Below are positions 6,573-59,679 of a stretch of DNA of 64,000 bases, piece after piece (position 1 is the stretch's first letter; every line of letters begins with the position of its first letter). The notes beneath the pieces were generated by a model, which searched no databases, was not told where the DNA came from, and was given only the letters and a program-made list of their open reading frames with translations. Position numbers and translations under genes: made by a program. The DNA comes from a virus. The stretch is from positions 44,592-108,591 of the IMG/VR virus record IMGVR_UViG_3300042923_001459; one strand, 5' to 3'.

Positions 6573-6986
6573 TTATTCAAAACCATCTTTTAATTTAGCA
6601 ATTCTTGCTATTTCTACAAAAAGCTTTTTAAATTCATCAAAATCATAGAAAGTATATCTAGCACTGTGTGTTGAAGAATCATGATTGAAATGCGAAGTTT
6701 TAAAATTGGATTTATCTAAATACGATATTAAAGTTCTGTGATCATGTGCATGTTTCATTAAGTAAATAGAAAAGACCAATTTATCTTCATAACAAAACAA
6801 TTCAAACTCAAATATTTTATTTACATTAATTCGTAGATAGGTTAGTGTTTCATCACTGTGAAGTGTCTTCATCGTTACTGGAGCTCCACCAGTTAATTCT
6901 GCCATTACAAGAAATGCGCTTAGAAAATCCTCAAATTCATCCAACATTACAATACTACTCTTTATATGCACCAACGAGTTTTTCAA
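6573..6986 (-). CDS. Hypothetical protein carrying the shared helix motif (start may be 6947)
   Basis: LDEFEDFLSAFLVMAELTG matches motif of the 22-29 kb family. Confidence 0.65.
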   Translation of the reverse strand: MKNSLVHIKSSIVMLDEFEDFLSAFLVMAELTGGAPVTMKTLHSDETLTYLRINVNKIFEFELFCYEDKLVFSIYLMKHAHDHRTLISYLDKSNFKTSHFNHDSSTHSARYTFYDFDEFKKLFVEIARIAKLKDGFE

Positions 6987-12775: not shown

Positions 12776-13141
12776 TTATTTTTTTATATCCATAATTTTA
12801 TCAATCATTTCTTCAGAAACTGCATCAGTTATGTCAAGCTCAATCTCAACACCATTTTGCACAAATAGTTGTACAGCAATTGTTACGCAATTAGAACAAA
12901 TAAGGGGTTCATTTTTTTCACTTAAAGAAACTACTGGTTTTTCGTTAGTTCCAATAGTTCCACAAAATGAACACGAATGAAATGAACTTTGCAAACCTTC
13001 AAGTCCAGCAGTTCCTCCATATAGTGGTAAAATTTGTCCATCTTCAAATTCAACAAAAGTCATTTGTCCATCTTGTTTGATGTCCTTTACTGGTTGTTTC
13101 ATTAATATTGTAAGTTCTTTTATTCTTTCCTCATCTAACAT
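12776..13141 (-). CDS. ClpX-type C4 zinc-finger protein
   Basis: CSFCG-x16-ICSNCV matches the ClpX N-terminal zinc-binding domain; start MLDEE after GGAAGA. Confidence 0.7.
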   Translation of the reverse strand: MLDEERIKELTILMKQPVKDIKQDGQMTFVEFEDGQILPLYGGTAGLEGLQSSFHSCSFCGTIGTNEKPVVSLSEKNEPLICSNCVTIAVQLFVQNGVEIELDITDAVSEEMIDKIMDIKK

Positions 13142-13142
13142 A

Positions 13143-13412
13143 TCACATCTTCCTTCCAAGTATAGAATTTAACATTGAATCAACTTGGTTAGAACCATTT
13201 GAGTTCTTTAAAATGGTCTGTGTTACTGTTAATTCATTAAGCACTCTAGAAAGTTGAAGCATAATTGAACTAGCTTCTATTAGATTTTCAAACTTATAGT
13301 TCTTGTCATTTCTATTATCTTCCATAGAACACTTACGAGACAACAATTCTATTTGTTTTACTATGGCATTTATAGCTAAATCAATTTGATCTTGCTGCGA
13401 CTCCAAACTCAT
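13143..13412 (-). CDS. Hypothetical protein
   Basis: 89 aa helical ORF in operon. Confidence 0.65.
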   Translation of the reverse strand: MSLESQQDQIDLAINAIVKQIELLSRKCSMEDNRNDKNYKFENLIEASSIMLQLSRVLNELTVTQTILKNSNGSNQVDSMLNSILGRKM

Positions 13413-21247: not shown

Positions 21248-21880
21248 TTATTGGATTACCCTGCGAGCGTTTACAAATTTATTTCTCCAGTACGAACCTG
21301 AAGCGAAAGTAATGTAATTGATTTTGGCTGTAGGATTATTTGTATGAAGCATTATATCCTTGTCAATATACATTCCTACGTGGTTGATTACTCCATCACC
21401 ATTTGTGTCAAAAAATAGTAAATCTCCCGTACGTAATTCATCAAGCTCTACTACTTGACCATAAACTGCTTGACGACGACTATCCCATGGGAGTTGTATT
21501 CCGATAGCTTTATCAAAACACCATTGCATTAGATCAGAACAATCGAAATCATTGTCGTTTGTTCTGCTTGAGCCATAAACATAAGGAGTGTTGATAATAT
21601 TTCCATCAGCATCTCTTCTATTCATGTAAAACTCAATTTTAGCTATTACTAATTTTGCTTTTTCTAACCATTCCGGAATAAATTCCTCCACGTATTGTGA
21701 TAATGAAGTAATGTAACCAACCGTTCCGTCCATCAATTTAGCATAATAGAAAGTTTTTCCTTCTACGTTGCTTAAAACTTGTAATTCTGTGCCTGCAGGG
21801 AGTGTTTTAATAACATTATTCGCAACTACTGGGTCTTTTCTAAAGTTGACTGAAGTTTTTGTGCGTATAAATTTTTCCAT
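21248..21880 (-). CDS. SH3b + NlpC/P60 cell-wall peptidase
   Basis: VNFRKDP..GYIT SH3b; PYVYG..FDCSD, GDLLFF, HVGMY, MLH. Confidence 0.9.
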   Translation of the reverse strand: MEKFIRTKTSVNFRKDPVVANNVIKTLPAGTELQVLSNVEGKTFYYAKLMDGTVGYITSLSQYVEEFIPEWLEKAKLVIAKIEFYMNRRDADGNIINTPYVYGSSRTNDNDFDCSDLMQWCFDKAIGIQLPWDSRRQAVYGQVVELDELRTGDLLFFDTNGDGVINHVGMYIDKDIMLHTNNPTAKINYITFASGSYWRNKFVNARRVIQ

Positions 21881-21980: not shown

Positions 21981-22463
21981 TTACCAATTTATTTTTTTTA
22001 ATTGTTTAAGTTTATCAAAATGTTTTTCTATGTCTGAAAGTTTTACATCCTTCTTTACGATAATTCCATTTATCTTTAAAAAGGCTGTTCTTTCTCCATA
22101 GAGCGGAAATTCTTCATAAGCTTCAAATTCTATAGCAAACGACTGATCAAATATTACAATTACTGTTTCGCGAAATTCACTTTCATTATTATTAAATAAA
22201 AATTCCACTAAACCGGGAACCATTTTATCCAACTCATCCTTAACGCTGTATTCACACCATGTTGTTTCATAAGCTAATTGAAAGTTCATTTTATTAAGAG
22301 CTATCAGTATTTCTTTGATATTCTCTGGGTGCGGTTCTGATTTTGTTCTAAAGTACGAAACACGTCCATATAACGGGTAATATTTGAAATCATAGCTTTT
22401 TATGAATTCTTCTCCGCTAGTTCTTATTAACTTTAACATCTTTATCCTACCTTTCATGGTCAT
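21981..22463 (-). CDS. Hypothetical protein
   Basis: Last gene of tightly coupled operon; probable start MLKLIRTS. Confidence 0.65.
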   Translation of the reverse strand: MTMKGRIKMLKLIRTSGEEFIKSYDFKYYPLYGRVSYFRTKSEPHPENIKEILIALNKMNFQLAYETTWCEYSVKDELDKMVPGLVEFLFNNNESEFRETVIVIFDQSFAIEFEAYEEFPLYGERTAFLKINGIIVKKDVKLSDIEKHFDKLKQLKKINW

Positions 22464-22890
22464 AGATAGCTGGTTGCATATCTATAAGGAATTGTTGTAG
22501 ATGATCTGGACTATCTATAGATACTTCTATAAATCTTTCTCCCTGCTTACCGTCAAATGTGACCTTTCTTTTGTAATTCTTTAGTGGCGCGTATCTACTT
22601 GTGTTTAATTTAAAAGCTTTTTCATCTATTTCTGCAACTATTTCCTTTGTGAGCATATTATGTTTAAATCTGATGATTGTTTTCATTTGAAAACTAAATC
22701 GATTTTCCCTTATGTATTTTCTTATGCAGTATGTGTGCTTAAAGGAATTTACCGATGCTCTTTCAACTTTTGGTTTGTAATGGAATTTATCTGCCAGTCC
22801 TGCTAATTCATTAAGTATGAAAAATGCATCTATGGTTTCTTCCACCATTGTTCTTTTGGGATGTGTTTCTGTTATCATTCCTTTAGCCAC
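22447..22890 (-). CDS. Shared-helix family protein
   Basis: EETIDAFFILNELAG. Confidence 0.7.
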   Translation of the reverse strand: MAKGMITETHPKRTMVEETIDAFFILNELAGLADKFHYKPKVERASVNSFKHTYCIRKYIRENRFSFQMKTIIRFKHNMLTKEIVAEIDEKAFKLNTSRYAPLKNYKRKVTFDGKQGERFIEVSIDSPDHLQQFLIDMQPAIYDHER

Positions 22891-23348
22891 CTACTTATAA
22901 TTGGTAAAATTTTCTGCAGATCTTCTATGCTTCTTAGTGTGCACACCATGATTCTTTTTCCCGGTTCCTTATTCTCATTATAAGATACGTCTGGCATAGT
23001 GAATCCAAATTGGGCCAAATCTGGTTCATTTTCAACAACTATACCTAATGGTTCCTCATTTATTAAGCAATCTATCATTGTAATGTACTCTCTGACACTA
23101 AAACCAGCCTGTAGAAAATTACTAAATCCCTCTCCACGTCTGATGCACCAAGAATGAGTATTATCATGTATCAATTGCCCACCGGTAATTTTTATATCTC
23201 TTGTCATAAGTTCAAGTACTCTATATGATTCCATAGTTTCATTGAAGTCTTTAATTAATTTATGATAGCAATTTACGTGAAACTCCCATGCTTCTTTCGA
23301 GCTTATAAAGTCGTTCAATAATGGTTGATCTATATTGTTTTCCATCAT
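22875..23348 (-). CDS. Shared-helix family protein
   Basis: NETMESYRVLELMT. Confidence 0.7.
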   Translation of the reverse strand: MMENNIDQPLLNDFISSKEAWEFHVNCYHKLIKDFNETMESYRVLELMTRDIKITGGQLIHDNTHSWCIRRGEGFSNFLQAGFSVREYITMIDCLINEEPLGIVVENEPDLAQFGFTMPDVSYNENKEPGKRIMVCTLRSIEDLQKILPIISRWLKE

Positions 23349-23364
23349 TTATCCTCCTCATTAT

Positions 23365-23410
23365 ATCCTTATATATATATTATATCACATTCTTTTCATT
23401 TTGTAAACAA
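23365..23410 (-). promoter_or_regulatory. Sigma-A-type promoter (cassette-like variant)
   Basis: Minus strand TTTACA-17-TATAAT with extended -10 TG. Confidence 0.7.
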
Positions 23411-23451
23411 AAAAAGAAGGTTTACCCTTCTTTATCTAGGAATTGTTGATA

Positions 23452-23859
23452 TTAAATAATTTTGTCTATCACGCTTAAAAATATTTCAAATGATTTTGCA
23501 TCATACAACGTCCATATAACTGTGTTTCCAGCTACAGATATTTCGCTTTTACTATGTACATCGTAAATAGTTCGCGGAGTTATGTCATATTGTGTGTGCA
23601 TTTTTAGATCTTGATATTCTCTACTTGTCAGTAACTCATGCTCCATATAAATTCCATTTCTACTAACTACAATTTTTTGATCTTCCTCATATACAGAAAT
23701 GTCGTAAACTGTTCCACCTTTTTTTCTATGCAATGTGAATTTACCAATTTTTTTATCTGAAAGTACCTTTACCTCAACTGGGAATGGTTTGGTATCAGTA
23801 AGACATTTCATCACTATATAATTATCAAGTATTTCGTTAATTTCTTCAATTAATGTCAT
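23452..23859 (-). CDS. Shared-helix family protein
   Basis: NEILDNYIVMKCLT. Confidence 0.7.
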   Translation of the reverse strand: MTLIEEINEILDNYIVMKCLTDTKPFPVEVKVLSDKKIGKFTLHRKKGGTVYDISVYEEDQKIVVSRNGIYMEHELLTSREYQDLKMHTQYDITPRTIYDVHSKSEISVAGNTVIWTLYDAKSFEIFLSVIDKII

Positions 23860-24248
23860 CTAAAGACCACCCATTCCTTCATAATCTGATTTAAGAATAT
23901 TGGAAGATGTTTTTCAGAAATATGAATTCTTATTGTCCTGCGTCCAACGCTGTAAGTATCATATTCCATTTTTCCAAAATGTTCATAATCACTTTCTATA
24001 ATCATCCCAACTTCGTTTTCATTAAATTGTGCGATATAACCCAACGTATCATATCTATAAAATACTCTTAAGGTGTATTCAAACGATTTTCTACCTTTTA
24101 CATAATACGAAATCATGCAGCCTTGCGCATCACGCCACACATCTAATGCAAAAATACATCTACCTGTTAATTCCTTCATAACTATGAAACTTTCCATAGT
24201 ATCGTGTAATTCTTGCATTATTAGGTTATCATTTAACAATACACTCAT
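23856..24248 (-). CDS. Shared-helix family protein
   Basis: HDTMESFIVMKELTG. Confidence 0.7.
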   Translation of the reverse strand: MSVLLNDNLIMQELHDTMESFIVMKELTGRCIFALDVWRDAQGCMISYYVKGRKSFEYTLRVFYRYDTLGYIAQFNENEVGMIIESDYEHFGKMEYDTYSVGRRTIRIHISEKHLPIFLNQIMKEWVVFR

Positions 24249-24676
24249 GACATTTCCTCAATTGAAAAAGAATCAATTTTTGACAATACATCATGAAACA
24301 TTTCAAACATTCTATCTATATCTTTAGGTGTTACAGCTTCTTCGAACAGACCATACTTATCGCCTATATATTTTCTGAAATCTTGATTTTGACCGCAAGA
24401 CCAAATCCTTGTAATTTTGTCAAATGACCAATCATCATTGTAAAGTACTAACATATTAATTTGTAAAAGATTTTCAAATTCTCTACAATAAAATGATATG
24501 CAATCCCTAAAAAAACTATCTGAATGAGAAACCGCTACTTCCCAATCTGCCATTTGTGCAGTAACCAACAAGATTTCCAACTTATCAACGAAATCATTAA
24601 GTGGTATTTTACTAGTGCTTAAATGATCATATTTTATAGGAGTCCATGTTCTATCAACTTCATATTCATAACTCAT
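24245..24676 (-). CDS. Shared-helix family protein (divergent)
   Basis: VDKLEILLVTAQMAD. Confidence 0.65.
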   Translation of the reverse strand: MSYEYEVDRTWTPIKYDHLSTSKIPLNDFVDKLEILLVTAQMADWEVAVSHSDSFFRDCISFYCREFENLLQINMLVLYNDDWSFDKITRIWSCGQNQDFRKYIGDKYGLFEEAVTPKDIDRMFEMFHDVLSKIDSFSIEEMS

Positions 24677-24688
24677 AACTAAACCCCT

Positions 24689-25177
24689 TCACCGAATGTA
24701 TTTCATGATTTTTGAAATTAATTCCATTAGTTGATCAAAATTCTCAAAGCTTACCGATAATCTCTTTAGACCCTTAACATTAGTAAATGTATGATTTTCT
24801 CTAGTAATATTTATCCAGTTGTATTCACTGAATTTATTTTCAATACTAACGCCAATTTTTCTTTCATCTATTGAAAAATTAAGAATCCCTGCATGTACCT
24901 CTATCATTATAAAGTAAGAACTTAACATTGGTGTCATTGATCCATTATTATAAATCATCCATCTTTTCATCATTGCACTCTTATCCTTGCGTATATAAAG
25001 TAGCTTCTGAGTTGATAGCGCTCGGTTTACGTTGAGGGCATCCAAAAGTTCATCAATTTGTTCTTCCAATGTGACCCTCTCATTTCTGCTTATTTTTAAT
25101 TTGAATGAAGGTACTTTGCCATTTTTCCATTGTCCCATTTTCCCCACTCTCCCAGCCGAAGGCTCGGGGCTCGGCAC
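24689..25177 (-). CDS. Shared-helix family protein (start uncertain)
   Basis: DELLDALNVNRALS. Confidence 0.6.
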   Translation of the reverse strand: MPSPEPSAGRVGKMGQWKNGKVPSFKLKISRNERVTLEEQIDELLDALNVNRALSTQKLLYIRKDKSAMMKRWMIYNNGSMTPMLSSYFIMIEVHAGILNFSIDERKIGVSIENKFSEYNWINITRENHTFTNVKGLKRLSVSFENFDQLMELISKIMKYIR

Positions 25178-25258
25178 TCACGAATCTATCTTCAAGCTCT
25201 CTGTAGAATTCCCTATAGTATTAAAACATTATGTTACATATTTATTATACTAAGTTTC

Positions 25259-25675
25259 TTACAACAAATAGAGAGGTTGAACTTTGACTAGAATGTCGTA
25301 CACATCGCTAGGCTTATTTAGTTCGAAGAGGAATTCCCGTTCAAATCTCTCTAAAATCTCACCGATAGAACCAGCATAGTGAGCGTGCTTCCTCCCGCCT
25401 TCAACAAATTTATATCTTTGCTTCAGCCATTCTATATTCTCTTCTCCAACGCTAAACTGGCTTACTTTCGTGTATATGCTACCATTAGGCCGTATGAAAT
25501 CAAAAGACAATGAGTCTCTTTGCCGTGATTTTGTCAATCTAATTGAAAAACTATATTTTGAGCTTTTTGGATCTGGGTACTCCGTAATTCTAACTGGTCT
25601 ATTGTCAGTTAGGTTCCATCCTACAATGTAGGTTTCCATTTCCTCTCTAATTTGTGCAATCATGCTTTTAGCCAT
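25259..25675 (-). CDS. Shared-helix family protein
   Basis: REEMETYIVGWNLTD. Confidence 0.7.
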   Translation of the reverse strand: MAKSMIAQIREEMETYIVGWNLTDNRPVRITEYPDPKSSKYSFSIRLTKSRQRDSLSFDFIRPNGSIYTKVSQFSVGEENIEWLKQRYKFVEGGRKHAHYAGSIGEILERFEREFLFELNKPSDVYDILVKVQPLYLL

Positions 25676-26151
25676 TACAACTTCTCCACCCTTAGGAAAA
25701 TTTTAAAGAATTCTCTTATTTCATTAGGATCTTCAATCTTCATGAAGAAATCTCTATAGCCAGGTTTTTGTGATTGTCTATTGACTCTAAGATTAGCTTT
25801 ATTCATGATTGCTCTACATTTAGTTTTTAGGTTGATGCCAAAATGATCTTCTATTAGCCATAATTCTGATTCTACTCCATAGCGGTATCTATTCACCCTA
25901 ATTTTCATGCAAGCTTGCCAATTTTGATAATATGATGGATGAGAACCTATGTAGTATGTTGAATCCTTCTGGTCTCCATGAATGTCACTTTTTGTCCAAC
26001 AAACTTTCCCTTTCAAACCAGAAAGTTCTCTCAAAACATTTATTGAATCTACTTCTTCTTGTATGACTAATTCTAAGTTTGCACGCAATTCTCGTGTTTG
26101 TAGAATGTACTTATCTAGCTCTTCTGGTGTCACCTTATTCACCTCATACAT
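25675..26151 (-). CDS. Shared-helix family protein
   Basis: QEEVDSINVLRELSG. Confidence 0.7.
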   Translation of the reverse strand: MYEVNKVTPEELDKYILQTRELRANLELVIQEEVDSINVLRELSGLKGKVCWTKSDIHGDQKDSTYYIGSHPSYYQNWQACMKIRVNRYRYGVESELWLIEDHFGINLKTKCRAIMNKANLRVNRQSQKPGYRDFFMKIEDPNEIREFFKIFLRVEKL

Positions 26152-26220
26152 ATTTTATCCTTTTATCTATTTTATGCAATAAAAAAACCAGTTTTTACAC
26201 TGGTTGATTAATATTTAACA

Positions 26221-26652
26221 TTACTTTCTCAACTTAGGTTCATCTCCAGCATCACAATATGTGCAATTGGATTTATCGCGGTCATATTTCAATGTATAAC
26301 TTTCAGTTATCCCGAAAGCAAGTGGTCCTTTATTTTTCTTTATTGTAAGATTAATTTTGTATCCCGGTAATTCGTTGTCTTCTGATAATTCCTTTGCTAC
26401 AATCAATCCATCAATGTAATCATCAATATGAATCCCTAAATCCATAGCTTCTCCTAAAGCCTTATCCCTACATTTCTCACAAGTTATACCATCATGCGAC
26501 GTTTTATTATGCCATTTACATAGCTTACACATATTAGCCTCATCCCATAGCTTTATATTTGTAAAATCTATTGGTTTTGAACCCAAAATACACCGTATAT
26601 ATTCCTCTTCCCTTGAAAAACTTTCACATGGGTCATTTAATTTCATTTGCAC
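26221..26652 (-). CDS. C4 Zn-finger + shared helix protein
   Basis: CKLC..CEKC; DDYIDGLIVAKELSE. Confidence 0.7.
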   Translation of the reverse strand: MQMKLNDPCESFSREEEYIRCILGSKPIDFTNIKLWDEANMCKLCKWHNKTSHDGITCEKCRDKALGEAMDLGIHIDDYIDGLIVAKELSEDNELPGYKINLTIKKNKGPLAFGITESYTLKYDRDKSNCTYCDAGDEPKLRK

Positions 26653-26857
26653 TTTTCTTCAGCTCCTCAGCTACAACATATGCATCCGTAAAATCCTTCA
26701 GACTTATGTTTGTTACCTTTTCCCATTCCTTAAATATTTCCTCTAGACATTCAGAACATACTGTTGTCGTTGTGTGATCACCAGCCAAACTCGATATAAA
26801 TGCTGTCGTGCAACATTGACAACTATACGCATACCATTTGCCATCGGATTCATTCAT
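26633..26857 (-). CDS. C4 Zn-finger + shared helix protein
   Basis: CQCC..CSEC; KDFTDAYVVAEELK. Confidence 0.7.
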   Translation of the reverse strand: MNESDGKWYAYSCQCCTTAFISSLAGDHTTTTVCSECLEEIFKEWEKVTNISLKDFTDAYVVAEELKKSANEIK

Positions 26858-27050
26858 TTGAAATCTCCCTCATTACGATGTATGCATCTATAAATTCAAA
26901 AATGTTAGTCCTATCGTCAATATCATTTTTATACCATGCTGCTCTTATTTCTGCAAAACATGGCTCGCATAAACTCATTGCCAATTGGCTTTTACAACGC
27001 AATCCCCATACAAATCTTATATTGCAATTTCTACATGTACAAGCATACAT
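26850..27050 (-). CDS. C4 Zn-finger + shared helix protein
   Basis: CRNC..CEPC; FEFIDAYIVMREIS. Confidence 0.7.
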   Translation of the reverse strand: MYACTCRNCNIRFVWGLRCKSQLAMSLCEPCFAEIRAAWYKNDIDDRTNIFEFIDAYIVMREISNE

Positions 27051-27292
27051 TATGATTCACCCAATTCCTCAGTTGCAATATAAGCATCCATGAATTCATC
27101 GTAATCCAACAATTCTCTATTCTCTGCACATGCTTCATACCAAGCTGCTAAAGCATTTTCTTGACATGTTATGCAGATTTTCTTTTCTCGTATTCCCCAA
27201 TCGTATTTTGAAAATTTTTTGCATATCTTACAATCAAACGCTTTTTCCATAATTTTATTTAATTCTTCTATATTTTTCTTTTTATCAATCAT
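27050..27292 (-). CDS. C4 Zn-finger + shared helix protein
   Basis: CKIC..CITC; DEFMDAYIATEELG. Confidence 0.7.
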   Translation of the reverse strand: MIDKKKNIEELNKIMEKAFDCKICKKFSKYDWGIREKKICITCQENALAAWYEACAENRELLDYDEFMDAYIATEELGES

Positions 27293-27639
27293 TTTGCTTC
27301 TATCGACCTACCTTCCGCACCAGACATTTCATTCATAACTTCAATGGCGTCCACCAAATCCTGTATCGTGCTATCACTATACCGCGGATTTGTCGCTATT
27401 ACATTCTCCAGCTCTGCGTAGCAGTCGCGACAAATTTTATTGAGCTTATAGCTTTTCTTATCGCGGAATCCAACTAAGCACCTGCACGTTTTGCATTCTG
27501 GTGGAACTGCACTTTGCAGATGCTCTATCATTTTATCCGTTAAGATTCTTTCAATTTTCTTATGAACTTCCTTTTCGACTCGTCGTTTTTCCTTCCAATC
27601 CACTATCGCATTTCTAATGCGTTTTAACATTTTCCTCAC
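27289..27639 (-). CDS. C4 Zn-finger + shared helix protein
   Basis: CKTC..CRDC; QDLVDAIEVMNEMSG. Confidence 0.7.
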   Translation of the reverse strand: MRKMLKRIRNAIVDWKEKRRVEKEVHKKIERILTDKMIEHLQSAVPPECKTCRCLVGFRDKKSYKLNKICRDCYAELENVIATNPRYSDSTIQDLVDAIEVMNEMSGAEGRSIEAK

Positions 27640-27652
27640 CCGCCAATTGTAT

Positions 27653-27898
27653 TTATTCTGCTAATTCATTCATTGTATCTATTGCATCTACTACATCTAA
27701 AACCGTCATATCAACTTGTGCTTTTTCCAATTCAAATTTGATATTTTTATAACAACTCGTACATGTTTTACACTCCATGTACGCCTTTGCATTTGAATTT
27801 GCCAATCCACCGCATGTCTTACAATTTCCAAGTAGTTGGCGTTTCTTATTTCTTATCTTTTTAGCCTTTAGTTTTTGAAAGAAATTGTCTAATTCCAT
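27653..27898 (-). CDS. C4 Zn-finger + shared helix protein
   Basis: CKTC..CTSC; LDVVDAIDTMNELAE. Confidence 0.7.
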   Translation of the reverse strand: MELDNFFQKLKAKKIRNKKRQLLGNCKTCGGLANSNAKAYMECKTCTSCYKNIKFELEKAQVDMTVLDVVDAIDTMNELAE

Positions 27899-27899
27899 T

Positions 27900-28115
27900 T
27901 TACGACCTCGCCAATTGTCTTATTAGTTTTTTACCTTCAACATATTCTTCTAGACCATACCCATCGCCGGCGATCGAATTTCTAAATTCTTCTTCACACT
28001 TTTTCTTACATTTTTTGCATAACTCTAAATCTAAATCATCTACCAACATGTACCCACATAATTGACAACAACCGTCAATTGTTTTTATCGTATAGCCAGT
28101 CAGATCTATTTTCAT
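27900..28115 (-). CDS. C4 Zn-finger + shared helix protein
   Basis: CQLC..CKKC; EEYVEGKKLIRQLA. Confidence 0.7.
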   Translation of the reverse strand: MKIDLTGYTIKTIDGCCQLCGYMLVDDLDLELCKKCKKKCEEEFRNSIAGDGYGLEEYVEGKKLIRQLARS

Positions 28116-28116
28116 A

Positions 28117-28347
28117 CTAGCAACTCCCTAACATATTAGCTAATTTTTTATTTTCAATATATTCTTCAAAATCAACCTCCGCACCTTCAGCTCTTAAACT
28201 TTTACATTCTATTTGACATTTAGTTGTACAAACCAAACATAAATCAAGGTTTATTACCACAATTGCTCTTTTTTCGCAAAATACACACATATTATGAACC
28301 ATTTCTACTTTTCCGCTAAATGTTATTTTCATACTAACAACTCCCAA
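28117..28347 (-). CDS. C4 Zn-finger + shared helix protein
   Basis: CVFC..CLVC; EEYIENKKLANMLG. Confidence 0.7.
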   Translation of the reverse strand: MGVVSMKITFSGKVEMVHNMCVFCEKRAIVVINLDLCLVCTTKCQIECKSLRAEGAEVDFEEYIENKKLANMLGSC

Positions 28348-28582
28348 GTGCGTTTGCTAATTTTTTATATTCTATGTACTCCCTAATCCCCAGTGCTTCC
28401 CCTTGCCACACTAACTCCTCTATGTCGAATGTCGCTTTTATGTAACAGCTCGTACACAGTTTATGTCCATTTCTCTCATCATACTCCTTACTGCATAACT
28501 CACATCTTATCTTATAATAATGTGCGTTCATTGCTACAAATTCCCACCACGTTTTATTCCCTAACCCTCCGCGAACTGTCAC
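28334..28582 (-). CDS. C4 Zn-finger + shared helix protein
   Basis: CELC..CTSCYIKATFDIE; REYIEYKKLANALG. Confidence 0.7.
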   Translation of the reverse strand: MTVRGGLGNKTWWEFVAMNAHYYKIRCELCSKEYDERNGHKLCTSCYIKATFDIEELVWQGEALGIREYIEYKKLANALGSC

Positions 28583-28903
28583 CTACCATTCCCTCCCTAA
28601 TTCGTTAGCTATTTTCTTATATTCGATATACTCGCTAATCTCCACAACCTCCCCTTGCCATATTAACTTCTCTATGTCGAATGTTGCTTTTATGTAACAA
28701 TTTTCGCATAGTTTGTATATGTTAGTTGGCATCAAATGCTTCTTTCCACATATTTCACACTTGTACTTTTTGTTCAAATAGTCTAATACTTCTTGTTGTA
28801 ACTCCTGTATTTCCTTCGTGGTTGCCATCTTATCCCCCCAAGTGTCAGCGTATTTTACTGTCAACTTTTTGCCTTCAATTTTTTTCCAGAAATTTTTTAA
28901 CAA
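28583..28903 (-). CDS. C4 Zn-finger + shared helix protein (recent paralog of 28334..28582; start may be MATTK)
   Basis: CEIC..CENCYIKATFDIE; SEYIEYKKIANELG. Confidence 0.7.
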   Translation of the reverse strand: MLKNFWKKIEGKKLTVKYADTWGDKMATTKEIQELQQEVLDYLNKKYKCEICGKKHLMPTNIYKLCENCYIKATFDIEKLIWQGEVVEISEYIEYKKIANELGREW

Positions 28904-28951: not shown

Positions 28952-29065
28952 TTACTGCCCTAATGCCTTACTCATAAACATTACAAATCCTACAAATATG
29001 CCCATTATGCCTGCCAACATTGCCAACCAAAACAGCCCAATAGCCCATAATCGCTTCATATCCAT
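28952..29065 (-). CDS. Small membrane protein (37 aa)
   Basis: Manual translation MDMKRLWAIGLFWLAMLAGIMGIFVGFVMFMSKALGQ, GAGGG RBS. Confidence 0.5.
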   Translation of the reverse strand: MDMKRLWAIGLFWLAMLAGIMGIFVGFVMFMSKALGQ

Positions 29066-29421
29066 TGCCCTCACTGCCCTCTCCCGTTACTCTACTAATA
29101 CTTTGTTTAGTACCAACAACTCCAGAAAAACACCTTAAATTTTACCCGTGATTTAGCGGGTATCTGCCCACCCTCTAGAGGCCCTCTGGGACCTTTCTAG
29201 GCACTTTTACAGCTGATAGGTATACCGCTGCCGCCGTATTACCTTATATATATATTATATCACATTAACGTTCTTTTGTAAACGGTTTGTTTAAAATTTG
29301 TTTAGACTGCTAGACGGTTCAATCGGTTGTCAAGACTTCTGGTTCTGTCCTCAGGTTTTCTATCGCGAGGCCAAAGCTTTTGAGAAGTCTGGGGAAAACC
29401 CTAAGATTCTCCCCAATTCTC

Positions 29422-30114: not shown

Positions 30115-30522
30115 CTAGAATTGGAAGCACCATGAACCACCACGAACGCCGAACACTAGGTCTTCGCTTTTACAAAGCTCATCGACTCTTTCAACTCTAC
30201 TTTCAATTAAGTCGGAGTCTTTATCGTACCCAACATAGAACCGACACATTTCATGAAACTCTTCTTTATACTCGTATTGTGGAATGATTTCAAGGAACTC
30301 ACCTGGAGCAAAGATAGTTTTGAACTTGTTCTCATCTCTTAAATCCAATGAGATAGTATCGAAGTCTCCGCCTTCTTGTCCGCTACGGAATTCAGTAATG
30401 TCGATGTTACCAAACTTAGCTGGTTTGATTATCATTGAAGTGCCGTTAGCATTGTGTTTGATATAATCAATCTTGTTGCAGTCCTTCGTACGTTTGAAGT
30501 TAATCCCGTTACATGATTTCAT
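30115..30522 (-). CDS. Cassette hypothetical protein
   Basis: Own promoter + RBS. Confidence 0.75.
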   Translation of the reverse strand: MKSCNGINFKRTKDCNKIDYIKHNANGTSMIIKPAKFGNIDITEFRSGQEGGDFDTISLDLRDENKFKTIFAPGEFLEIIPQYEYKEEFHEMCRFYVGYDKDSDLIESRVERVDELCKSEDLVFGVRGGSWCFQF

Positions 30523-31040: not shown

Positions 31041-31253
31041 TCAGTTGACTCCCTTCAGTCTTTTGCGTCTCATCATGTCTTGATATGATGTGCGGTCCGG
31101 TTGAATGAAGAGGTTGTACTCTTCTTCAGTAAAGCCAAGGAATTCTTGCAGAGTTCTTTCTTCATCTGCATCGTCATGCCAGTTATCAACGTAATCATCT
31201 ACGTCTTTAAGTTCTGCGTTGCCGTCAATATAGTCTTGAACAAATGTACTCAT
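31041..31253 (-). CDS. Hypothetical protein, paralog of 38918..39115
   Basis: TFVQD..G.A.L.D...YV..W...LQEFLGFT; start MSTF. Confidence 0.7.
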   Translation of the reverse strand: MSTFVQDYIDGNAELKDVDDYVDNWHDDADEERTLQEFLGFTEEEYNLFIQPDRTSYQDMMRRKRLKGVN

Positions 31254-31465
31254 ACTAGTTTCTCCTCCGTCCATACAGTTCTACGTAAAAATTGATTCCG
31301 CATTTCTTGCAGTTCTCCAAGTCCCTTTGCTAACTCGATTGTATCTTCTCCTGCTAGAGCAGCGCGTCCAATCATATCAGAAGTTTGTTCAATTTGTTTC
31401 TGAATGCTGTCATACATACGAAGTACTTCGCCAACCTTACATGGCTTCATGTCTGAATGATTCAT
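31250..31465 (-). CDS. Hypothetical protein
   Basis: Coupled ORF. Confidence 0.6.
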   Translation of the reverse strand: MNHSDMKPCKVGEVLRMYDSIQKQIEQTSDMIGRAALAGEDTIELAKGLGELQEMRNQFLRRTVWTEEKLV

Positions 31466-38917: not shown

Positions 38918-39115
38918 CTATCTTAACTTTTGAACTAGCATTGCGTTAATCATTCCTCTATTTTCAGAGAGGTATGTTTGAAATTCTGCCCATGTAAATC
39001 CAAGGAAATCTTGAAGTGAAAGTGGTGAACACCCACATCTCCATGCATTAACGTAAACTTCAAGGTCCACCAAACCAGCTCTACCATTCAATAGGTCTTG
39101 CACAAAAGTTGTCAT
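38918..39115 (-). CDS. Hypothetical protein, paralog of 31041..31253
   Basis: MTTFVQDLLNGRAGL...LQDFLGFT. Confidence 0.7.
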   Translation of the reverse strand: MTTFVQDLLNGRAGLVDLEVYVNAWRCGCSPLSLQDFLGFTWAEFQTYLSENRGMINAMLVQKLR

Positions 39116-44559: not shown

Positions 44560-44715
44560 CTATTGGCTCCACCTAGTTTTGAGAATGTAAACCATAGTTT
44601 TGAAACGTTTTTTAAAAGTTGCTTTCTTTTCAGCCTTGAAAACAACTTCAACGTTTTTAGGAGCTGCCACCACATATGGTTTACCGTCTTTCATTCCAAT
44701 CACTACTTGTTTCAT
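44560..44715 (-). CDS. Small basic protein
   Basis: Start MKQVV after GGAGGG; variant promoter. Confidence 0.6.
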   Translation of the reverse strand: MKQVVIGMKDGKPYVVAAPKNVEVVFKAEKKATFKKRFKTMVYILKTRWSQ

Positions 44716-59244: not shown

Positions 59245-59679
59245 CTAGCTTGTCATAGCTACCATGACGATATAAGATTCAATATTTTCTAAGAATGCTA
59301 ATCCCTTCTTGAGGTTCTCCTCATATTGTTTAATCTTCTCTTCTGGTAGCATATTATATCGATGTCCAAGCGACCATTCAATATCCATGCAACCAAGCAT
59401 ATGACAATCATCATCCATAGAAGTATTGTGAGAGCCCCAAACGTTAATACCCCAGACTGTTTTACCTGCTCCCCACTCGCGAGGTTTTCTACCATGCCAG
59501 CCGCTCATATAAACATCTGGTGAACCAGGTTTGCTATAGCTCCATGTAGCTTCAGCTGAAGCTACTCCGGAATCGAGTTTGTAACCTTTATCTCTCATAA
59601 TCTTATGAGCTTTCTTTAAGAAATCTTCCGAAAGTAATGTAACTCTTGCCATTGAAGGGTGAATGTAACCTGTTCCCAT
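59245..59679 (-). CDS. Cassette hypothetical protein
   Basis: Own promoter + RBS. Confidence 0.75.
   Translation of the reverse strand: MGTGYIHPSMARVTLLSEDFLKKAHKIMRDKGYKLDSGVASAEATWSYSKPGSPDVYMSGWHGRKPREWGAGKTVWGINVWGSHNTSMDDDCHMLGCMDIEWSLGHRYNMLPEEKIKQYEENLKKGLAFLENIESYIVMVAMTS

Follow-up and report, generated by a model that had tools for sequence, protein, structure and literature searches.

A signature helix shared by two families of small proteins in a phage-G-like megaphage contig

Introduction

The terminal 64 kb of a 108.6-kb virus contig (IMG/VR record IMGVR_UViG_3300042923_001459, positions 44,592 to 108,591; this stretch of 64,000 nucleotides is hereafter the window) carry genes that lie nearly all on the minus strand, among them 19 tightly packed genes that run from position 28903 to position 21981 with intergenic gaps of −20 to +103 nucleotides (nt). 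We number these genes g01 to g19 in the order of their transcription, g01 being the first, at 28903. A first-pass annotation of the window had noticed that almost every gene of the run encodes a helical motif of about 15 residues and had proposed that the products are adaptors, plugging into one hub through a constant helix. The question raised by this locus is whether the recurring helix is such a portable docking element or the mark of common descent. On a modest balance of probability we favour descent, with the proteins forming one superfamily of the phage G lineage that has been amplified in tandem, diverges fast and has been shortened from either end without ever losing the helix.

The large terminase of the contig shares 78% identity with its counterpart in Bacillus phage G, and a large protein of acetyltransferase repeats shares 31% with phage G gp678; from these two matches the contig is taken to be a fragment of a phage-G-like megaphage. 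The gene run itself has few connections. Its nucleotide sequence had no megablast match among 50,697 phage records, and Pfam and PHROGs searches with all 20 proteins (g01–g19 and the product of a distant gene at 6573..6986) returned nothing significant. With no Pfam, PHROG or PDB match to set against it, the earlier statement that no phage system of this kind has been described is a fair one.

The shared motif

Without prior information, a Gibbs sampler assigned a single 15-mer site to each of the 19 run proteins, near the C-terminus in g01–g10 and at residues 7–41 in g11–g18. These blind sites reproduce both the motif that had been reported for nearly every gene of the run and the locations given for it, following the zinc finger in one set of proteins and N-terminal in the alpha/beta set. 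The log-likelihood ratio was 352–362, compared with 290 ± 6.6 in shuffled sequences (z 9.4), and so a motif no better than that of shuffled proteins, which the first-pass annotation had named as a refuting outcome, is not what we found. For comparison sets, each of 19 other real small proteins of this genome, the ratio was 290 ± 20 and never exceeded 330. The consensus reads h-x-[DE]-x-h-[DE]-[AS]-[YF]-x-V-x-x-E-L-[ST]-G.

Because the ten zinc-finger proteins are homologues of one another, a cross-family profile test is the fairer one. A profile built from the zinc-finger proteins only placed five of the ten alpha/beta proteins in the top six of 198, at the correct positions (rank-sum p 2e-4), with g16 at rank 1 and g13 at rank 4. 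The reciprocal profile, built from the alpha/beta proteins only, placed g08, g06, g07 and g10 at ranks 1, 2, 4 and 5 (p 1e-3). When carriers were scored on a leave-one-out basis, nine of 15 scored above all non-members and four more were beaten by just one or two candidate carriers.

The earlier count of about 18 carriers stands for most members and needs qualifying for the remainder. Genes g01–g04 encode a divergent version of the motif, E-E-Y-[IV]-E-x-K-K-L, to which the alpha/beta profile gives no score; g12 and g14 are weak on leave-one-out scoring (1.0 and −0.5 bit, respectively), g14 being rescued by a relative in phage G; and g19 is doubtful, with rank 136 of 198 for the zinc-finger-only profile and with a Gibbs site (residue 49) and a MAFFT placement that disagree. 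The distant carrier that had been reported at 6573..6986 is confirmed, at 6.6 bits on leave-one-out scoring. Using a combined profile, for which 6 bits is reached 0.05 times per shuffled proteome, we identified two extra carriers outside the run: a 144-residue protein encoded at 59245..59679 (minus strand; 7.9 bits), the final 16 residues of which are the motif, and the product of 6825..7412 on contig G000 (6.9 bits). In both of them the motif forms the extreme C-terminus and the remaining body is unrelated.

A recurring amphipathic segment might still arise by chance or from composition, or might reflect a repeated element in the DNA or RNA. Amphipathic helices are common, and the 1–5 bit motif matches that we see in phage G and in the relatives G001, G004 and G005 do not rise above chance level; many of them lie at extreme C-termini. 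Against an artefact stand the z-score over shuffled sequences, the reciprocal ranking across families, the conservation of the motif in phage G and in the metagenomic homologues described below, and Rfam and tRNA scans of the 21–30 kb region that returned nothing. In addition, many different synonymous codons are used at the conserved Leu, Val and Ala positions of the motif; it is therefore the protein that is constrained, not a nucleic-acid element, and a DNA-level repeat or a ribosome-binding-site shadow was rejected because synonymous codons vary so freely. The artefact reading is refuted by the shuffle, cross-family, codon and conservation tests, and we give it next to no credence. The motif is real, significant and under selection at the protein level.

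Two homologous families

The run proteins had been described as some 18 small proteins, otherwise divergent, that share a helix. This description is wrong for the ten zinc-finger proteins, and the implied premise of 18 unrelated domains fails: the proteins fall into two homologous families in which the helix is the best-conserved segment. For the ten zinc-finger proteins, g01–g10, BLAST and jackhmmer link every member as a whole-length homologue of the others in a single family. Its domain of about 65 residues is laid out as CxxC, 14–20 residues, CxxC, a helix, a loop and then the C-terminal motif helix, and the four Cys are invariant. In an AlphaFold2 model of g08 made from the paralogue alignment, this domain is compact (predicted local distance difference test, pLDDT, 77.5; predicted template modelling score, pTM, 0.61) and consists of the ribbon followed by helices 29–41 and 50–64, the second of which is the motif.

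A profile search of 1.84 billion representative proteins gave 45 matches for this family, about 17 of them small metagenomic proteins with the ribbon layout. All of these approximately 17 homologues end in the motif helix, and some bridge the g01–g04 and g05–g10 versions of it. Together with g01–g10 they are defined by a conserved aromatic residue in the first helix and by the C-terminal pattern h-x-[DE]-[FY]-h-[DE]-x-h-h-[VIL]-x-x-x-L, and in the extended alignment of 25 sequences conservation is highest in the columns of the Cys ligands and of the motif. The homologues are rare, forming clusters of one to three members; one is carried by a 558-kb contig, and two share contigs with each other. 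One metagenomic protein, P0018 (156 residues), holds two complete units of the g01–g04 ribbon-helix type in tandem, and so the unit can be duplicated within a single gene. A sequence search of the PDB with the ribbon profile found just generic ribosomal-protein zinc ribbons, at E-values of 0.005 or weaker.

All ten genes lie on the minus strand. The four with the divergent helix are g01 (28583..28903; 106 residues, with a Cys4 ribbon), g02 (28334..28582; 82 residues, 62% identical to g01), g03 (28117..28347; 76 residues) and g04 (27900..28115; 71 residues). In g05 (27653..27898; 81 residues) the ribbon is followed by the motif helix as the final residues of the protein, which scores 15.8 bits with the combined profile and 4.0 bits on leave-one-out scoring, the scale used for the members that follow. 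The longer g06 (27289..27639; 116 residues; 18.1 bits) has an N-terminal helix ahead of the ribbon and the motif helix, and has the metagenomic near-orthologues P0014 and P0023. The ribbon and motif helix recur in g07 (27050..27292; 80 residues; 10.5 bits) and in g09 (26633..26857; 74 residues; 7.7 bits; near-orthologue P0015), and g08 (26850..27050; 66 residues; 18.3 bits) reduces the domain to its minimum of ribbon, helix and motif helix. Finally, g10 (26221..26652; 143 residues; 9.1 bits) has an intermediate architecture, in which a 52-residue tail follows the ribbon and motif helix.

A C4 finger followed by a helix is also the arrangement of the ClpX N-terminal zinc-binding domain (PF06689) and of the DksA/TraR fingers. 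No member of g01–g10 matches PF06689. Among the window relatives it is touched only by a dispersed zinc-ribbon protein of 127 residues (12776..13159, minus strand), which jackhmmer reaches from g08, which we count in the family of g01–g10, and which scores 20.6 bits against this ClpX-type finger, under the cut-off of 27. The protein is conserved in phage G, aligning near its full length (score 330, about 117 residues) with the product of 490081–490440, and from its sequence it could mimic or bind the N-domain of host ClpX.

The DksA/TraR likeness suggests another role, in which the ribbon-helix proteins are secondary-channel factors of RNA polymerase and the two acidic residues that open the motif helix serve as the tip. 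Consistent with this idea are the C4 finger flanked by helices, the acidic-x-x-acidic-small pattern, a PHROG 54 (DksA-like) hit for g05 at E 0.055, and DksA/TraR clusters among the weak structural neighbours of g06 (template modelling score, TM, 0.37–0.38). However, no member matches PF01258 at E-values up to 1, and the order of elements differs: in DksA/TraR factors a long coiled coil with an acidic DxxDxA tip comes ahead of the C4 finger, whereas here the acidic helix comes after the finger, in a helical hairpin of just about 13 + 15 residues. The motif also sits mid-helix in the alpha/beta proteins. Failing both the profile and the order of the known factors, the window proteins are very unlikely to belong with them.

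In the course of the jackhmmer searches, the search begun from g01 drifted to a second and larger zinc-ribbon family, which is present in many dispersed copies on the contig upstream of the window and, in phage G (353893–371001), as an array of about 28 genes for proteins of about 200 residues. This may reflect distant kinship to g01–g10 or profile drift on the Cys pattern.

The second of the two families comprises g11–g18 and the dispersed product of 6573..6986; in these proteins the motif helix stands at the N-terminal start and the body follows it. All are encoded on the minus strand: g11 (25675..26151; 158 residues; motif at residues 30–45, 14.6 bits on leave-one-out scoring), g12 (25259..25675; 138 residues; the weak motif, from its Gibbs site, at residues 9–24), g13 (24689..25177; 162 residues; motif at 41–56), g14 (24245..24676; 143 residues; an atypical motif at 26–41), g15 (23856..24248; 130 residues; motif at 14–29, 18.1 bits), g16 (23452..23859; 135 residues; motif at 7–22), g17 (22875..23348; 157 residues; motif at 35–50, 5.7 bits), g18 (22447..22890; 147 residues; motif at 16–31, 10.4 bits) and the dispersed member (137 residues; motif at 18–33). 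The doubtful g19 (21981..22463, minus strand; 160 residues) lacks a convincing motif. The single member modelled with AlphaFold2, g15, gave a low-confidence structure (pLDDT 60.8) with helix 2–28, five strands and helix 112–128, in the order H-E-E-E-E-E-H. When g15 and an alpha/beta profile were searched against 5.8 billion proteins, only the query proteins themselves were returned. The predicted isoelectric points (pI) of the members span 4.5 to 9.7, and a uniformly acidic DNA mimic was rejected for that reason.

Relatives in phage G

We searched the phage G record (JN638751) with both family profiles and then scanned the entire sequence with the motif profile. Phage G contains both architectures of the window and one that joins them. 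An N-terminal motif followed by a body is found in gp485, which at 13.0 bits is the top motif match in phage G, and in the products at 30275, 81246 (81246–81662) and 61187; a ribbon with a C-terminal motif is found in the product of 476830–477189. In gp307 (224761–225267) the ribbon, the motif helix and an alpha/beta body occur in a single chain. This protein is related to g14 (jackhmmer 5e-26), and the two are best conserved over the motif.

A tandem array of eleven proteins of 138–160 residues, gp485–gp497, each with a motif-like N-terminal helix and several linked by jackhmmer, is the closest counterpart of the alpha/beta block. In a viral structure library, Gp485 was the best match of the g15 model among the named relatives (TM 0.56, probability 0.98). 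As the top motif match and as the structural neighbour of the g15 model, gp485 is thus the point on which two independent lines converge.

The array also bears on the alpha/beta bodies. A motif-free profile of its C-terminal strand-helix block ranks the alpha/beta proteins of the window high, at their own C-termini (p 5e-5), with the 6573..6986 product at rank 1, g11 at 5, g17 at 13 and g18 at 14 of 208, and hhalign aligns the same strand-helix element with P of 0.006–0.025. From these two results the alpha/beta bodies probably share one fold, on evidence that is modest.

Phage G proteins gp485–gp497, gp307, gp316 and the products of 476830–477189 and 81246–81662 carry the same signature helix at the same positions as the window proteins, and are annotated merely as gpNNN hypothetical proteins. 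They differ from the window set in being more dispersed and in including the fused gp307 form, for which the 108-kb contig offers no equivalent. When five related megaphage records were searched with the profiles through a first-pass filter, three ribbon matches and no body matches were returned.

Next to the gp485–gp497 array, in our own mapping of the published gene numbers onto JN638751, lies gp476, which was labelled 'CyaY chaperone-like' from Foldseek by Buchan et al. (2025; PMC12484599). The protein with this label belongs to a second, shorter sub-array (gp475–gp480, 372646–374505) of proteins of 96–122 residues that have a related N-terminal helix, E-x-L-x-x-x-h-h-x-L-S-L.

Chemistry and placement of the helix

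On a helical wheel, positions 1, 4, 5, 8, 9, 10, 11 and 14 of the motif are hydrophobic. The highest information content lies at the acidic positions 3 and 6, at Val 10 and at Leu 14; Glu 13 is also conserved, and the wheel places the acidic residues 3, 6 and 13 off the hydrophobic side. The hydrophobic arc is too wide for a surface helix, and we therefore infer that the helix is the packing keystone of both domains. From the same projection, the acidic stripe formed by positions 3, 6 and 13 may be a common contact surface.

The models agree with a structural role. They seat the helix as the first helix of a helix-sheet-helix sandwich in g15 and as the last helix of the compact zinc-ribbon domain in g08. 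The first-pass annotation had stated that finding the helix to be the buried core of one fold would count against an adaptor role, and this is nearly what the models give, as both place it within compact folds.

These results bear directly on the proposal that the helix is a portable docking element that plugs about twenty small proteins into one hub, such as a protease, an ATPase or an RNA polymerase. The part of that proposal that speaks of a constant helix on variable parts is sound in so far as the helix occurs with the ribbon, with the body, in the fused gp307 and at the end of two proteins with unrelated bodies; it does not hold for the bodies, which are two families. The retention of the helix in ribbon-only, body-only and fused forms, its presence at the end of two unrelated proteins, and the acidic positions 3, 6 and 13 among those of highest information, off the hydrophobic side, are all what a docking element would show, and, to judge from the helical wheel, the helix of the ribbon-only forms is more hydrophobic than a 66-residue monomer would be likely to bury. 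On the other hand, no candidate for a hub emerged, the bodies belong to two homologous families instead of many unrelated domains, the models seat the helix inside compact folds, and descent alone accounts for the sharing. With two homologous families and a helix inside compact folds, the adaptor-and-hub proposal loses its premise, and we regard it as unlikely. A version in which the acidic stripe and part of the hydrophobic arc form a common plug, docking some twenty early proteins onto one partner or onto each other, we consider equally improbable.

The comparison with F-box and SOCS-box adaptors, from which the idea derives its logic, is instructive. There too one short conserved helical element recurs in many proteins with differing remainders. 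But F-box and SOCS-box elements are independent domains of 40–50 residues that bind a known hub (Skp1 and Elongin BC, respectively) and are fused to unrelated interaction domains, whereas the window helix is a single helix integral to two homologous folds. Of a box set on many unrelated domains we find just the two further carriers whose bodies are unrelated.

Comparison with known folds and families

The order of helix, antiparallel sheet and helix in the g15 model is that of frataxin/CyaY. Against frataxin/CyaY this model (pLDDT 60.8) reaches Z 6.0–6.9 over 81–95 residues with a root-mean-square deviation (rmsd) of 2.5–3.5, under a VIA noise bar of Z 8. The same model and the same noise bar apply to the other likenesses: the T4 MotA C-terminal domain gave Z 7.2 and 6.7 over 102 residues at an rmsd of 4.3, and type III secretion chaperones gave VIA Z 4.8–5.8 and Foldseek E-values of 0.2–1. 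As for MotA, the pI range of the members does not suggest uniform DNA binding. An ESM Atlas model (pLDDT 0.52) resembled YbjN-like clusters at TM 0.59, and there was no Pfam match to the YbjN-like PF10722 among the window proteins. No sequence match connects the alpha/beta proteins with the frataxin/CyaY, MotA, type III chaperone or YbjN families. We read the helix-sheet-helix likeness of the model as a common arrangement and not as evidence of family membership or function.

A further candidate, capsid-targeting or cleaved leader peptides of the T4 type, was rejected. An N-terminal leader that ends at a prohead-protease site does not fit a motif that is C-terminal in ten proteins and internal (residues 7–56) in the others, and the position-13 Glu is absent from seven of the 18 carriers.

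Giant phages and giant viruses hold lineage-specific multigene families, an example being the paralogous head-protein families of phiKZ-like phages. The window genes resemble these in that small genes have been amplified in tandem and have diverged rapidly within a single virus lineage. They have no sequence match to the known giant-phage families, and they add a reduction series of ribbon-helix-body, ribbon-helix-stub, ribbon-helix and helix-body forms.

Transcription units and neighbouring genes

A consensus scan of the sequence for promoters and terminators suggests when these proteins are made. Upstream of the zinc-finger block lies a strong predicted sigma-A-type promoter (29254..29282, minus strand; TTTACA, a 17-nt spacer, TG and TATAAT), with 11 of 12 consensus matches and an extended −10 TG. 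The block is closed after g10 by a terminator-like hairpin (26186..26205, minus strand). Between g16 and g17 (23379..23433, minus strand), a second terminator-like hairpin (23433–23413) is followed by a strong host-type promoter with 11 of 12 matches (23407–23379), and a third hairpin (21200–21179) follows the lysin gene that lies downstream of g19. Because of the promoters at 29282 and 23407 and the terminators after g10, g16 and the lysin gene, the run is predicted to form three transcription units, g01–g10, g11–g16, and g17–g19 with the lysin gene; for g11–g16 the scan detected no promoter. The strong host-type promoters, together with the long cassette region of small genes that adjoins the run, suggest that the run proteins are early and host-directed.

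The separate units also bear on the possibility that the helix is an element of homo- or hetero-oligomerisation, through which ribbon-only forms might modulate the body-bearing ones. The helix is amphipathic over a wide arc and closes very small proteins at their extreme C-terminus, the numbers of ribbon genes (10) and body genes (9) almost match, and one metagenomic protein has two ribbon-helix units in tandem. However, the ribbon and body blocks lie in separate transcription units, and the phage G members are dispersed, with no evident pairing. We consider self-association of this kind unlikely, on a par with the adaptor-and-hub proposal, and descent with retention of the helix remains the reading that we prefer.

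Several neighbours of the run deserve mention. The lysin, an SH3-like and NlpC/P60 protein encoded at 21248–21880 (minus strand; PHROG 400, E 1.6e-22), appears to be co-transcribed with g17–g19. At the other end, a leader of about 180 nt (29075–29250, minus strand) separates the promoter at 29282–29254 from the first open reading frames (ORFs) of the zinc-finger block; its G+C content is above that of its surroundings, it has a predicted fold of −52 kcal/mol (z −2.0 compared with shuffles), and it has no Rfam match. Just upstream of g01, within the g01–g10 promoter-to-terminator unit, a very hydrophobic ORF of 40 residues (28952–29074, minus strand) likely encodes a single-pass membrane peptide. 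Farther upstream, two small paralogues (31041–31274 and 38918–39115, minus strand) share an N-terminal segment and a central L-Q-[ED]-F-L-G-F-T, and form a separate small family within the early cassette region.

Discussion

The most economical account of the shared helix is ordinary gene-family evolution. Since gp307 holds the ribbon, the motif helix and the sandwich in one chain, a single ancestral protein with these three parts gives the simplest history. Such a protein would have been duplicated many times in tandem, and its copies would have been trimmed from the N-terminal or the C-terminal end, each derivative retaining the helix; g10, with its ribbon, helix and 52-residue stub, would be an intermediate in this trimming series. 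The helix would pack against the post-ribbon helix in the zinc-ribbon proteins and against the sheet and last helix in the alpha/beta proteins. The proteins themselves may be early host-directed binders, acting in takeover of the host or in counter-defence, with the variable parts giving each its own specificity.

Several results weigh against this history. The fused form is known from gp307 alone, for which a search of 5.8 billion proteins gave no further homologues, and jackhmmer found no link among the alpha/beta bodies, for which leave-one-out profiles and a second Gibbs motif did no better than shuffles and gave no link either. The shared fold of these bodies depends on one model of pLDDT 60.8, derived from the paralogue alignment itself, and on the weak C-terminal statistics. 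Structural searches do not add to it: the fold matches of the g15 model are below the VIA noise bar of Z 8, the best of them (Med17C) at Z 7.5, and for the g08 ribbon model Foldseek and VIA-align found no meaningful neighbour, with a best Z of 4.3, also below the bar. The putative burial of the helix is read from the helical wheel, and pure descent does not account for the two carriers whose bodies are unrelated.

With these points in view, the proteins appear, from sequence comparison, to constitute an undescribed superfamily that is specific to phage-G-like megaphages and has the helix as its diagnostic element. This groups about 22 genes of the contig, at least 15–20 genes of phage G and the metagenomic proteins into one definable superfamily, and its profile can be used to annotate megaphage genes, most of which are without known function. 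Phage G is cultivable and the invariant residues of the helix are few enough to mutate, making the family a clear target for bench work. The reduction series around a retained helix is a tidy example of how tandem arrays diversify in giant phages. If the helix should prove to be a shared interface, the family would represent a new means by which a phage reaches many targets with a single contact; and were the helix a common plug, phage-G-like megaphages would possess a combinatorial set of adaptors, with the ribbon-only forms as competitors or regulators.

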